This document shows positions 8,157 to 13,928 of a stretch of 64,000 nt of DNA, in pieces. The notes below the pieces were generated by a model. The model had not been told where the DNA came from, searched no databases, and was given only the letters and a program-made list of their open reading frames with translations. Both the position numbers and the translations under genes were made by a program. The DNA is from Candidatus Latescibacterota bacterium. Lineage in GTDB: Bacteria > Latescibacterota > UBA2968. The first letter of the stretch is position 1. Each line of letters opens with the position of its first letter. The stretch covers positions 704,001-768,000 of the forward strand of contig OZ244960.1 of assembly GCA_965222605.1 (NCBI GenBank), in the 5' to 3' direction.

Positions 8157-8196
8157 AAAAAAAGAGCGGCAGGTTGCAAAAACCCACCACTCTTTT
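8157..8196 (-). terminator. intrinsic terminator closing the sigma/ABC/RNAP-like operon
   Basis: Minus strand GAGTGGTGGGTT-TTTGC-AACCTGCCGCTC-TTTTTTT (12-bp stem with G-U pairs). Confidence 0.7.
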
Positions 8197-8217
8197 GTGT
8201 GTTCAATCGTCCTCTTT

Positions 8218-11200
8218 TTAATCGTCTATCGGCAACCCCACAAATAACCGGCTATACTCATCCGTCAACGGATCGCGCTCGCCCTTTTGCGCTGCGCGGG
8301 CAAATACCACACCCGGCGTTTCCGACCTGCGTGCCCGCGCCAAAACGCCATACCCACCGGGCGCACTCTGCGTCTCCAGATCGCCCTGAATCGCTATCAT
8401 CTCTGCCAGCGCATTGGCCAAACCCCAGCGCGCACCAATCGCCCGCGCAAAAAGCTCCTCTGGCGTCAGCCCCTCCCTAAAACCGTGCTTCAGAGGCGTA
8501 AACTCACCCTGATCATTTCGCGTCACGCCCTGAGGAGCCACATACAGCCTGACTTGCTGCCAATTGGCACGCGCACCACATTCCACCAGAAGCGCGGGAA
8601 TCCCGAGTTCATCATCGTCATATCCGCGAAATCGAGCCAACACAGCCGACACCTCATCGGGATAATCGCGCCAGACATCTGGATCATCGCCCTCTGGCGG
8701 ATCGGGACAATCAAGCGACAAACCGATAAAAGCACTCATCGATGCCCCTGTCTTGCGCGCGACATCAAAACCCCGATCCCACAATCGCGTAGCCAGATCC
8801 AATGCAGCCTTCGCACCATCGCGCGCCATCGCATCCGCCATCCAGCCCATCACCTGATACTTATCGACAAACAACCCCTTTCGCTCAACCTCATCGCCGA
8901 CAATCGACGCAATCTCCTGCAACCCCTCATCCGTCATACTCATATACGCCAGGCCAAACAGCGCGTCGTGCATCGGGTGTACCTTCTCCCGTGCAATCAG
9001 CCCCGGATCCCGATTCAGATGCGCCACTGCCGACAGATGCGCCTCAGCCGACCGCTGGCCTACTTCAGTCACCGGCACAAAAATCGCCACCTGATCGCCA
9101 TCAAAATCCAAATTCATCATCTTGCAAATCGCCACACACACGCGAATTGCATCACCTTCCACGCGCACCGGACGACACGCCACAAAAGCCATTGGCGAAA
9201 ACGCGGGATTGCGAAGCACAACAGTCCATAACCCAGCCATAGCCGCATCCAGAGCTTCCTCCGCTTTTCTCGACCGCCTATCCACTTCTTCAGCCCCCAC
9301 CTCTCGCGCAGCAAACGGCCCAAACAATGTCCATGCCATTTCCTCGGGCACACCGACCTGATCGTATCGCAATTCGGGCGCAGGCGCAGCCACCGAACGC
9401 CCGCTGAACAACGCATGCGCCTGAAATTGCAAACGCGACAACTCGCAAAATGCGCGAACCCGCTCAGATAGCGTTTCAACCGCGCGATCCACCAATATAT
9501 CTGGCGCGCCATTGGCAATCATCTCACTCAAGCGGTCATTGGCCTCCCGCAATGCGCTGGGCACATCTCTCCCGCTCACATGTGTCAACGAATGCCCCGG
9601 CAGCCACGGATGCGGAACCGAGCGCGCAAGCGCGACATCCCCATCGCGTTTCAACGAAAACTCTACGCCGCGTTCATCCAGCGCAACTGCCACTCCACCT
9701 TTTGACAAATGCCCAATTAGATCATCAAACTGAGGGGACGGCGCAGTGGGGACAACAGATCCTGCAACGACGCGGTCAGATAGGGTATCAGCATCGTCTC
9801 GATCCACCGCGCACGTATTGAACAAATCGCCAATCACCCCAAAAGCACCCACTTCTCGCAACGCCAAAAACTCTGTCTCACCCAACCCTTGATCGCGTTG
9901 ATCCGGCTTCACACCCATGTGAATTTTATCTGCGGCCAGATGCAACGTGCGCCCCCAATACACCCACCCCACAGTGGTGCGACGCGGCAGCGTTTCCCCA
10001 TTTAGCGTCAGCGTCTCCATGCCATCTTCTGCCAGCCCATTAGCACTCAAACGAGTGCGTATCTCATCGTCTTTCGGCGCACTGAGCACGGGAACAATAA
10101 CCGGCTCTCCCTCGGCTTTTGCAATGCGCCCGGCCACAGCTTCACGCACCTGCCCAATATTCAACCGCGACGGCAAACCACACACACTCACAATCAGTTC
10201 CACAGGCGTGCCATCCGACAATTTGGGCATCTCTTCATCTTTCACAATGCGCGACACCACACCCTTAAAACCGTGTCGATTGCTCAGTTTATCGCCCGGC
10301 GCAACGCGATTGGGCAACATCATCCGGTTCGCAGCGGACTCACTAATCACAAGCGCGTCTTCGTGCGCATCCCCATTCCACGCCATAAACGCGGTCAGCA
10401 AATTGTACCCCGTCCAAAAATGCGGATCGCGCGGTTCACACCCCGTTTGCACCAACGCGGGTTCCGACTCCAGCGCTTTGCCGTCATATTGCGCGTGATA
10501 CATATGCCACACGCCCTGCTCATCGCGCTGCATATCGGGTCCCGGAGCACCAATCCACTGTCGCATCATATTCACACCCATCAAAACGCGATTGGTATCA
10601 TTGTGTTCCAAAAACGGAACCACCGAAGCACCTATGCCCAGCCGCTTTTTAGGGGCATCGTCTTCAATCACCAGTTTGCCATCGCGAATAGTCGCCCCCT
10701 GAGCCACCTCTAAAATCCGCGCGAGATTCGGTCCCTCAGGCGTGCAATAAGGACACACGCGCCCATCGTGTGACGGATGATAGTAATTTTCTATCCCCTC
10801 ATCGGCCTCACCAATAATTGGGATCAACGTCACCCGCCGCAAATGAACGTGCATATCCTGCCAATTGGTCGCCTGCAAATACTGAGAGGTCGGTTCTTCC
10901 GTAAAAAACGCATAAATCCAATCTCCCAACGGCATCCATGTTTCAACTGCTTCTCCCAGCAGTTCTGGCATATTTTCCAACCGCTCGGCAATATAATCGC
11001 GCACTTGCTCGCCCACACACCGAATTTCAGCGCACGCCAAATCCACCTCAGTCGGCGCGGGAACTACCGTTCGAAAAAAGCCATCCACTTTAAACCGCCC
11101 CCATTCATCGGGCTGAGGGATATTTTTGTACACAACCTCTTGTCCGCCCTGAACCGCGAGATGCAATTCACAGGTGTACTCATCCACCGACATCACCCGA

Positions 11201-11304
11201 TAACCCGCCAGCGACACTCTATCCGCCAACAATTCGGGCAACCCCTTTTGAACAAATACATCCCACGAAATTTTATGCCACGGTGCCTTCACCGAAAGAC
11301 TCAT
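8218..11304 (-). CDS. miniature fused RNA polymerase beta-beta' (RpoB-RpoC)-like protein
   Basis: RpoB motifs [76 protein letters not shown]; RpoC motifs [26 protein letters not shown]; AGGAGG RBS 6 nt before ATG 11304. Confidence 0.92.
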
Positions 11305-11346
11305 CAAATTCCTCCTGTCTAATTGAGGGGATGGATAAATACAATC

Positions 11347-13201: not shown

Positions 13202-13242
13202 GCGTCTTTGCGCTATGAACTGCTACCACAGTCATGCCCGAC

Positions 13243-13848
13243 TCACTCGCCTTCATACCCCATTCCATACATCCGACCCCATGCCTCTGCGAGTTGCTTG
13301 CGCGCGTGGAACAGCCGCGATTTCACTGTACCCTCTGGAATCGCCAGCCGTTCGGCAACCTCTCGAAGCGTCACCTCATCTTCGTACACCATCTGAAACA
13401 CCTCGCGCTTTTCCTCTGACAACGCATCGATCAACGCCTGCAAAATGCGCCGTTGTTCAGCGCGTTCCAATTGCACATCGGGTCCCAGTGCAGCCCGATC
13501 GATCATCCATCCCGGAACGGATCGTTCTTCGTCCTCCTCATCGTAAAGCGAAGGCATTTCCAGGGGCTGCTCGCGACGGCGACTTTTACTTCGCAATTGA
13601 TTCAGCGACAGATTTCTCGCAATCCGAAACAGCCACCCGCGAAATGACCCTTGCCCCGACCATTGATCGGCCCGATTCCAAACCCTGAGAAAAACCTCCT
13701 GTGTCAAATCATCTGCTGCGACCGGATCCCGCGTCATCCAACGCAGGCTCTCGGTCACCTGTACCTGATAGCGCGCAAACAGAATCGCAAAAGCCTCTTG
13801 ATCCCGCGCCACAATCCGCTGCATTAAAATCGCGTCCGATGGTGTCAA
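13243..13848 (-). CDS. ECF-family RNA polymerase sigma factor
   Basis: Region 2 ADDLTQEVFLRVW...FRGWLFRIARN, region 4 REVAERLAIPEGTVKSRLFHAR; likely TTG start 13848 after AGGAGG. Confidence 0.93.
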   Translation of the reverse strand: MTPSDAILMQRIVARDQEAFAILFARYQVQVTESLRWMTRDPVAADDLTQEVFLRVWNRADQWSGQGSFRGWLFRIARNLSLNQLRSKSRRREQPLEMPSLYDEEDEERSVPGWMIDRAALGPDVQLERAEQRRILQALIDALSEEKREVFQMVYEDEVTLREVAERLAIPEGTVKSRLFHARKQLAEAWGRMYGMGYEGE

Positions 13849-13868
13849 AAAATATCCTCCTGTGAGAA

Positions 13869-13895
13869 TCGACACCGCCCAATGCCCAGAGGTTC
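13869..13895 (-). promoter_or_regulatory. ECF-type promoter upstream of the sigma gene
   Basis: Minus strand GAACCT-16nt-GTCGA, matching the RpoE-like GAACyT-N16-GTC pattern. Confidence 0.65.
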
Positions 13896-13928
13896 AAAAA
13901 AAAGCGCAGCCCTTTGGGACTGCGCTTC
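13896..13928 (-). terminator. intrinsic terminator
   Basis: AAGCGCAGTCCC-AAA-GGGCTGCGCTT plus T-run on minus strand. Confidence 0.8.

Follow-up and report, generated by a model that had tools for sequence, protein, structure and literature searches.

In this study, we have analysed a 64,000-nucleotide stretch of DNA (the window) from a Candidatus Latescibacterota bacterium (GenBank contig OZ244960.1), which lies inside a 6.34-Mb single-contig genome. Between positions 8157 and 13928 it carries the gene for a much reduced RNA polymerase (RNAP), in which beta-like and beta'-like parts are fused in one chain (the mini-RNAP), together with the gene for a sigma factor of the extracytoplasmic function (ECF) class. 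The conserved unit is a two-gene cassette, made up of the sigma factor, the mini-RNAP and their own promoter, and is narrower than a three-gene operon. The gene pairing, the polymerase anatomy and the promoter are solid. In the textbook view, each bacterium has one cellular RNAP core; the cassette looks like an undescribed second transcription system beside the normal RNAP. We tentatively propose, at slightly less than an even chance, that it is a second autonomous transcription system in at least seven phyla, in which a polymerase of ~115 kDa without alpha or omega would use its own ECF sigma factor, held on the clamp helices without a flap, at a private promoter. The features of the cassette are as follows.

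13901-13928, minus strand: intrinsic terminator, a hairpin followed by U8, with a 12-bp stem that has 7 GC pairs; it insulates the cassette from the upstream genes.
13871-13896, minus strand: ECF-type promoter, TGAAC-N15-GGTGTC, with the -35 element GAAC at 13895-13892 and the -10 element GTC at 13873-13871.
13855-13860, minus strand: ribosome-binding site GGAGGA of the sigma gene, 7 nucleotides (nt) before the TTG at 13848.
13243-13848, minus strand: ECF sigma factor of 201 amino acids (aa), with sigma2 and sigma4 domains only, RpoE/AlgU/SigW-like (Pfam, TIGR02937).
11347-13140, minus strand: MsbA-like half-size ATP-binding cassette (ABC) exporter (ABC_membrane and ABC_tran), lineage-specific cargo.
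8218-11307, minus strand: single-chain beta-beta' fusion, the mini-RNAP, 1029 aa as listed (Pfam, hhalign, AlphaFold2, Foldseek).
11053-11307, minus strand: N-terminal domain of the mini-RNAP, residues 1-85, one helix plus beta-sheets, occupying the place of the beta lobes.
9688-11052, minus strand: beta-like part, residues 86 to ~540 (hhalign to the genome's own RpoB 390-1255, probability 100%).
9448-9558, minus strand: beta' clamp helices (coiled coil), residues 584-620, the presumed dock of sigma2 (aligned by hhalign with the RpoC of this genome, beginning at residue 262).
9094-9114, minus strand: catalytic Mg loop NLDFDGD, residues 732-738 (translation; the canonical barrel has NADFDGD).
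8368-8463, minus strand: bridge helix, residues 949-980 (alignment and a long helix in the AlphaFold2 model), followed by a 49-residue tail.
8160-8196, minus strand: intrinsic terminator, a hairpin followed by U7, with a 16-bp stem; it ends the cassette.

The pairing was established in a genome scan with one genome per species, which returned 194 stretches with a relative of the mini-RNAP; the locus counts reported here use 80 of these. The 80 loci carry seven phylum-level labels (Latescibacterota, Poribacteria, Chloroflexota, Planctomycetota, Gemmatimonadota, Hydrogenedentota and Armatimonadota), the close relatives of the window's own locus being labelled Latescibacterota. In 78 of the 80, the gene immediately upstream, in the same orientation, encodes an orthologous sigma factor that is 46 to 95% identical to that of the window; the two loci without one (L074 and L076) begin at a contig end. 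Presence of the two genes was also compared across 168 genomes of the window's phylum: 61 have both, 3 the mini-RNAP only, 1 the sigma gene only and 103 neither. In the three polymerase-only genomes the sigma gene was not found with the window query among the matches listed, and in the sole sigma-only genome the gene stands at a contig start. The linkage of sigma factor and mini-RNAP on which an earlier note on this DNA had built its proposal was thus borne out, both by the neighbourhoods of the homologues and by near-perfect co-occurrence within the phylum. When 6118 open reading frames (ORFs) from the 80 loci were clustered all against all, only the sigma and polymerase genes emerged as common across phyla; the remaining large clusters were antisense ORFs inside the polymerase gene. 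The gap between the sigma stop codon and the polymerase start codon, estimated from alignment ends, was at most 9 nt or negative in 36 of 77 loci, and the two genes are predicted to be translationally coupled in the conserved cassette.

The sigma factor scored 65.6 bits against Sigma70_r2 and 55.8 bits against Sigma70_r4_2, both over the cutoff, and 123 bits against TIGR02937 (cutoff, 42.9); its closest solved chains are ECF sigma factors, namely AlgU, SigW and RpoE-type proteins. Translation most likely starts at the TTG at 13848, which gives 201 aa, rather than at the GTG at 13875, because the TTG lies 7 nt after GGAGGA and 22 nt after the promoter motif and the GTG falls within the promoter. 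The linker between sigma2 and sigma4 has a P-G-W motif at residues 112-114, of which P112 and W114 are invariant in 40 aligned orthologues; we read such invariance as unusual for ECF linkers. The genome has 13 other ECF-like genes, and the best of these paralogues is only 35% identical to the cassette sigma factor, whereas orthologues from other phyla are 46 to 62% identical. Given this distance and the strict pairing, the cassette sigma factors form a distinct orthologous clade that is defined by its partner.

The polymerase family was recovered in protein searches. A word-index search gave 815 matches, the best 120 of which are nearly all 1000 to 1070 aa long and are named "hypothetical protein" wherever a source gives a name. 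Among 1.84 billion cluster representatives, 333 proteins matched at an E value of 1e-30 or better; 65 of the best 150 are 943 to 1101 aa long, and the canonical giant fusions appear only far lower, at ~220 bits. No natural sigma-polymerase fusion (~1230 aa) turned up in these searches, which included no dedicated search for longer proteins. Long frames of 1194 to 1244 aa were considered as candidate fusions and rejected, because the sigma gene is not part of them and occupies an open frame of its own (264 to 292 aa) in the same genomes. One same-family relative with an 8.4-Mb genome (G076) has two cassettes, with polymerases 50% and 41% identical to that of the window, each with an adjacent sigma gene.

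The polymerase is patchily distributed: it is present in 64 of the 168 phylum genomes, and its frequency by family varies between 0 of 13 and 24 of 30. This patchiness, the seven phylum-level labels and a variable cargo slot between the two genes would suit a mobile or defence element, with the mini-RNAP as a back-up or decoy for a host enzyme attacked by phage factors or antibiotics. The absence of flap, jaw and lobes, which are the targets of many RNAP inhibitors, points the same way, and such a role would be compatible with any mechanism. We nevertheless consider it very unlikely, since no PADLOC defence model matches the polymerase, no integrase or mobile-element gene is conserved alongside and no family member occurs in 50,697 phage and 72,556 plasmid records, where the matches are canonical rpoB and rpoC and none covers 80% of the mini-RNAP query. 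A viral fold library gave nothing specific, and PHROG matches were only to the full-size beta and beta' families. The best 80 relatives on viral contigs are at most 36% identical, and two that were inspected have separate beta and beta' genes. Viral contigs L118 (7179-13100) and L122 carry adjacent genes for a beta-like protein (906 aa) and a beta'-like protein (1001 aa); there are many viral contigs with such pairs, which are 22 to 27% identical to the fusion over residues 156-966. These pairs are reduced phage polymerases, outside the mini-RNAP family.

The second element of the conserved unit is the promoter. An ECF-like promoter had been claimed just upstream of the sigma gene, and its string is indeed present, with GAACCT at 13895-13890, an N16 spacer and GTCGA at 13873-13869. 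It is not a chance match, since, of 78 regions preceding the sigma gene (those of the window and of 77 related loci), 75 keep GAAC-N16-G.GTC; these comprise 59 distinct sequences. Letters outside the search pattern are also kept among these 59: the T before GAAC in 57, the CG before the G in 52 and 58, respectively, and the T within G.GTC in 51. The distance from motif to start codon is most often 20 to 22 nt. The layout is that of a classic ECF promoter, with a GAAC-type -35 and a GTC-type -10 element.

Within its own genome, the cassette promoter is the single occurrence of the strict motif and the top site in a position weight matrix (PWM) scan, at 30.1 bits versus 24.1 for the runner-up, which is antisense within a 655-aa ORF. 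The pattern GAAC-N15-GGTGTC occurs 7 times in this genome, not above the ~13 occurrences expected for an equally informative pattern in a Markov simulation. In five other complete genomes, the promoter pattern occurs 32 times versus 6 for a reversed control. Just five of 30 sites fetched from these genomes are both intergenic and 20 to 21 nt before a start codon, and these are the five sigma promoters; the other 25 comprise 23 within long ORFs and 2 intergenic sites, 76 and 181 nt from the next ORF. No recurrent second promoter site was present among 88 pattern matches over all 80 loci.

The boundaries of the unit, as well as its gene content, were described correctly in the earlier note; its conserved extent was not. 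Three co-oriented minus-strand ORFs lie within 8157-13928, at 13243-13875, 11347-13140 and 8218-11307, and these are the sigma factor, ABC exporter and mini-RNAP genes named there. The terminators at both ends are real hairpins, far beyond chance: the upstream one folds at -20.4 kcal/mol (z, -4.29) and the downstream one at -22.3 kcal/mol (z, -4.48), and for each of them none of 200 shuffles folded equally well. Terminator-like sites are not enriched across the region (11 observed versus 9.0 +/- 3.1 expected). As far as Pfam goes, the claimed absence of an anti-sigma gene also holds: no anti-sigma family was detected in six neighbouring products, namely the mini-RNAP, the ABC exporter and four further neighbours. 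The self-contained three-gene operon, in contrast, is not the conserved architecture, as the ABC gene is missing between sigma and mini-RNAP genes in 70 of the 78 sigma-bearing loci. The exporter occupies this position in 8 of the 80 loci, namely in seven close relatives and in L010, where it is 39% identical; other near-identical relatives of the window have an empty slot. It is cargo, one of several alternative inserts in close relatives, and lies outside the conserved unit.

The slot is variable even inside one genus, where it may be empty or hold an ABC exporter or other ORFs. In L004 (8710-9900) it holds an unrelated 396-aa ORF with no Pfam, PHROG or other match, and in L010 (7587-9765) a 115-aa ORF together with the 39%-identical exporter.

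Metatranscriptome assemblies give a hint that the sigma and polymerase genes are expressed and cotranscribed. Contigs from four runs in two studies, 90 to 95% alike, cover the sigma, polymerase and upstream genes. In two runs a contig joins the 3' end of the sigma gene to the 5' end of the polymerase gene without the ABC gene, these contigs coming from relatives that lack the insert, and one contig of 2421 nt spans the ABC-polymerase junction. These contigs are only a hint of cotranscription, as they carry no information on strand, ends or level and the libraries may contain DNA; stretches that no contig covers carry no meaning.

The third element is the polymerase itself. Both large RNAP subunits are represented in one chain, since RNA_pol_Rpb2_6 (137 bits; 1e-39; cutoff, 23.4), RNA_pol_Rpb1_2 (54 bits; 3e-14; cutoff, 25.3) and RNA_pol_Rpb2_3 (24 bits; 4e-5) all match the same protein, the start of which is probably the ATG at 11304. 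Its anatomy was derived by comparing a profile of 68 family members by hhalign with the RpoB and RpoC of the same genome. The N-terminal domain (residues 1-85; mean column conservation, 0.49) is conserved but family specific, with no homology detected, the hhalign match beginning at residue 86. The beta-like part contains the fork region, the ED pair E316/D317, the beta barrel with the motif GDK..RHG.KG (K340, R344 and K348) and the beta C-terminal region. RpoB 1-389, which forms the lobes, has no counterpart, and neither does the flap (RpoB ~782-1021), which is excised between the ED pair and the barrel motif.

The beta'-like part aligns residues 582-970 with RpoC 262-768 (hhalign probability, 99.9%), in the order clamp helices at the start, rudder skipped, switch 2, barrel, funnel region and bridge helix at the end. 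RpoC 1-261, with the zipper and the zinc and lid region, has no equivalent, and neither do the jaw, the trigger loop and the C-terminal clamp of RpoC. As to the trigger loop, the alignment ends at RpoC 768, 59 residues remain, and no conserved small-subunit gene was found in the neighbourhood. The C-terminal 49-residue tail has a conservation of 0.63. The profile match to solved beta' chains begins at Mycobacterium tuberculosis residue 341, and the alignment includes the clamp-helix stretch. AlphaFold2, run on the 68-row alignment, gave a single, very confident fold (predicted local distance difference test score [pLDDT], 94.7; predicted template modelling score, 0.93), in which helices 584-598 and 603-620 form a helix-turn-helix hairpin at the clamp-helix position. 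The top Foldseek matches of this model are bacterial and plastid RNAP beta and beta' chains, with no dedicated structure among them.

In several close relatives (G085, G090, G091, G095, G096 and P0020-P0022), the polymerases are 1050 to 1070 aa long and the match is split near residue 470, where the beta-like and beta'-like halves join. This split suggests a tolerated insertion at the fusion point.

The mini-RNAP is very probably an enzyme under selection for catalysis, because its catalytic residues are kept in 85 to 100% of the 68 members at a mean column identity of 33%. D734, D736 and D738 are kept in 96 to 97%, K340 in 93%, R344 in 100%, K348 in 94%, E316 in 88% and D317 in 96%, and the beta' residues R699 and P701 in 85 to 90%. 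A purely noncatalytic RNAP mimic that acts as an anti-sigma factor, one of the two readings offered by the earlier note, fits poorly with so conserved an active site. The mini-RNAP is not an orthologue of rpoB or rpoC, an identity that was ruled out by scores far below the equivalog cutoffs (TIGR02013, 171 versus 801 bits; TIGR02386, 105 versus 963 bits). Separate full-length rpoB (1257 aa) and rpoC (1363 aa) genes are present elsewhere in the genome, in which the fusion is single copy.

The other reading offered by the earlier note was that of a dedicated core that forms an orthogonal holoenzyme with this sigma factor. It is favoured by the conserved catalytic residues and by the retention of the clamp helices, on which sigma region 2 primarily docks; the binding prediction lends it only weak support. 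A physical partnership is indicated by the obligate pairing, the translational coupling and the fact that, of the N-terminal third of beta', only the clamp helices survive, and the sigma factor probably binds the mini-RNAP. The complex was predicted from residues 1-799 of the mini-RNAP and the full sigma factor, each given as an alignment. The interaction prediction score from aligned errors (ipSAE) was 0.43 (runs, 0.43, 0.33 and 0.44) versus 0.00 for all three controls, and the pLDDT of the partner was 64. The multimer prediction suggested in the earlier note thus separated the pair from its controls, but as a weak pass: the calibration set had 58 of 80 solved complexes and 2 of 110 mismatched pairs at or above the mark, and those reaching it at 0.60 or under included only 7 of the 80 solved complexes and both of the passing mismatches. 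The pass may also stem from likeness, because a sigma factor on clamp helices resembles the solved holoenzymes.

That the two proteins make up a dedicated sigma-dependent single-chain polymerase, with a working holoenzyme of its own, is in our judgement an evenly balanced proposition, and several observations weigh against it. The clamp helices are merely average in conservation (0.44 versus 0.52 overall), and their retention is not specific to sigma binding, because NusG-type factors bind them too. The complex prediction scored weakly and listed no interface. The beta flap tip helix holds sigma4 in every known holoenzyme; in the mini-RNAP this dock is deleted, yet the promoter keeps its -35/-10 layout, as expected if the host core reads it with the cassette sigma factor. 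The sigma factor is to all appearances an ordinary one that could bind the host core. Finally, the genome scan proposed in the earlier note recovered the cassette's own promoter and no convincing further target: there was no second convincing copy in six genomes (regular expression and PWM in the window's own genome and a pattern scan in the five others), and a private holoenzyme would be left without obvious output, because its only detectable target is its own operon.

In a different account, an ordinary sigma factor would use the host core to transcribe its own operon, and the mini-RNAP, as the sole product of that regulon, would work without sigma, as YonO-type enzymes may. Its templates would then not be defined by a promoter and could be single-stranded or damaged DNA, foreign DNA or RNA. 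The canonical ECF promoter layout, the canonical RpoE-like sigma factor, the lack of a flap that could position sigma4 and the confinement of the motif to the cassette, which is the pattern of a single-operon ECF sigma factor, all suit this account. So does YonO, a single-chain two-barrel protein without a trigger loop that is an efficient RNAP (PMC5467207). It provides, however, no reason why the clamp helices alone should have been kept from the N-terminal third of beta'. It likewise leaves unexplained the overlapping stop and start codons, as well as the finding that, among 168 genomes, just one (at a contig end) has the sigma clade without the polymerase. A self-activating sigma factor with an upstream terminator and without an anti-sigma factor would, moreover, have no evident trigger. 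On balance, we regard this account as rather unlikely.

The clamp helices also bear on the possibility that the mini-RNAP is the regulator of the sigma factor. By binding through these helices it would, as an anti-sigma factor by mimicry, withhold sigma from the host core and close a negative loop at an autoregulated promoter, with or without a separate catalytic job. The mini-RNAP gene stands where RpoE-type operons have their anti-sigma gene, no domain of that type was detected nearby, and the retained clamp helices, the translational coupling and the weak pass of the complex prediction would all be accommodated. A 1030-aa protein with both barrels intact and catalytic residues kept in 85 to 100% of members, however, indicates selection beyond binding alone, and known anti-sigma factors are small and none was detected here as a domain. 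We therefore judge a regulatory role to be quite unlikely.

Returning to the dedicated holoenzyme, we infer that the sigma factor binds the mini-RNAP and that the mini-RNAP, and not the host core, carries out promoter-specific initiation; any cellular role is inferred likewise. We postulate that the mini-RNAP would be an active DNA-dependent RNA polymerase and that the sigma2 domain would dock on the clamp helices, the sole sigma-binding element to survive the reduction. The result would be a dedicated holoenzyme, separate from the alpha2-beta-beta'-omega enzyme of the cell, which would initiate at the cassette's own promoter in a self-driving positive loop and would also express any cargo between the two genes, in the window the ABC exporter. 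It can be envisioned that such a system could act as a back-up enzyme, as a bistable switch for its cargo or on unusual templates.

The study has brought to light a populous family of beta-beta' fusions, drastically reduced and spread across phyla, that are packaged with a sigma factor and a promoter. Should the proposal prove true, the cassette would be a natural orthogonal triad of polymerase, sigma factor and promoter; no smaller sigma-dependent RNAP would be known, and the rule of one cellular RNAP would have an exception. If the polymerase works with the sigma factor, it would define the minimal set of elements of a sigma-dependent enzyme, without flap, lobes, trigger loop or alpha, and would provide both a test bed for the positioning of sigma4 and the -35 element and a natural orthogonal expression module of compact size. 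If it instead works without the sigma factor, it would be a new cellular single-chain RNAP under single-operon ECF control. In the full texts covered by our literature search, supplements not being included, no description was found of a fused mini-RNAP in bacteria with a linked ECF sigma factor. The main text of PMC7826278 mentions no Rpb-type neighbour of an ECF group, and the supplementary ECF-group tables of that paper might list one.

Several features of the surrounding DNA were also recorded. Just upstream of the cassette terminator (13952-15926, minus strand) lie a gene for a 345-aa protein, whose residues 43-77 match a DksA/TraR C4 zinc finger (Pfam, 38 bits), and a 315-aa ORF that belongs to no known family. 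In 18 Latescibacterota loci both are found in synteny with the cassette, at identities down to ~47 to 59%. Because DksA-type fingers act on RNA polymerase, a link between the DksA/TraR protein and the mini-RNAP is conceivable. Downstream (4976-8070, minus strand) a gene for a BlaI-type repressor (Penicillinase_R, 104 bits) precedes one for a BlaR1-like protein of 902 aa, in whose C-terminal half five repeats of a TonB-C-like module were seen by eye; relatives have a second copy of this BlaI/BlaR1-like pair a few kilobases off. Of the 24 1-kb bins over window positions 1-24000, all but the first (+0.094) have a negative GC skew, and the G+C content climbs from ~0.42 to 0.54-0.57 over 7000-11000, the region of the polymerase gene.

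The cassette may be compared with several known polymerases. YonO of the Bacillus prophage SPbeta is a single two-barrel polypeptide of ~100 kDa without a trigger loop, which has few catalytic residues in common with the multisubunit enzymes and is prophage borne, and its promoter factor is unknown (PMC5467207). Since YonO is active without a trigger loop, such a loop is evidently not needed for activity (PMC5467207). The mini-RNAP likewise is a single two-barrel chain without a trigger loop and coexists with a host enzyme; unlike YonO, it aligns over ~820 residues with bacterial beta and beta', is chromosomal with no match in phage records and has a sigma gene adjoining in 78 of 80 loci. A YonO-like prophage RNAP was ruled out by this extensive alignment and by the lack of a phage context.

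The RNAP of yeast cytoplasmic linear plasmids, composed of K2ORF6p and K2ORF7p (PMC6211774, PMC2919709), also has beta followed by beta' in one chain of ~1000 residues and has lost the lid, the rudder and most of the clamp; the 2018 paper on this enzyme called a beta::beta' fusion unknown in any other RNAP (PMC6211774). In the yeast enzyme the clamp coiled coil is likely missing and there is no sigma factor (PMC6211774); its trigger-loop region is on a separate small subunit and it groups with viral enzymes, whereas the mini-RNAP family keeps the coiled coil and has no conserved small-subunit gene nearby. A yeast-plasmid-type RNAP was ruled out by the bacterial affinity of the mini-RNAP, its clamp helices and its sigma partner. 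Switch 2 and the funnel/bridge-helix region are said to mark the DNA-dependent members of the two-barrel polymerases (PMC2919709), and all of these are included in the alignment of the mini-RNAP to RpoC 262-768.

The non-virion RNAPs of jumbo phages have a sigma-like specificity subunit (PMC7598289). In these enzymes, as would be the case in the cassette, a reduced two-barrel polymerase without alpha or omega is combined with a separate promoter-specificity protein. They are phage encoded and consist of several beta and beta' fragments, and their specificity subunit is only remotely sigma-like. The full-length beta-beta' fusions (NCBIfam PRK14844 and PRK09603; 2839 to 2890 positions) have the same beta-to-beta' order but, unlike the mini-RNAP, consist of complete subunits placed end to end and are the cell's only RNAP; the mini-RNAP matches these models only piecewise (172 versus a cutoff of 4632 bits and 161 versus a cutoff of 5372 bits, respectively).

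The closest comparison is with the ECF holoenzymes, solved for sigmaH and sigmaL of M. tuberculosis and sigmaE of Escherichia coli, which like the cassette combine bacterial-type beta/beta' barrels, switch 2, bridge helix and clamp helices with a two-domain ECF sigma factor and a GAAC/GTC promoter with a spacer of ~16 nt. The mini-RNAP differs from the bacterial holoenzyme in being one chain instead of alpha2-beta-beta'-omega, in having ~1030 residues versus 2620 for the RpoB and RpoC of its own genome and in lacking the lobes, flap, zinc and lid region, rudder, trigger loop and jaw. In its presumed mode of action, the mini-RNAP comes closest to a bacterial ECF holoenzyme that has been cut down to a single chain.

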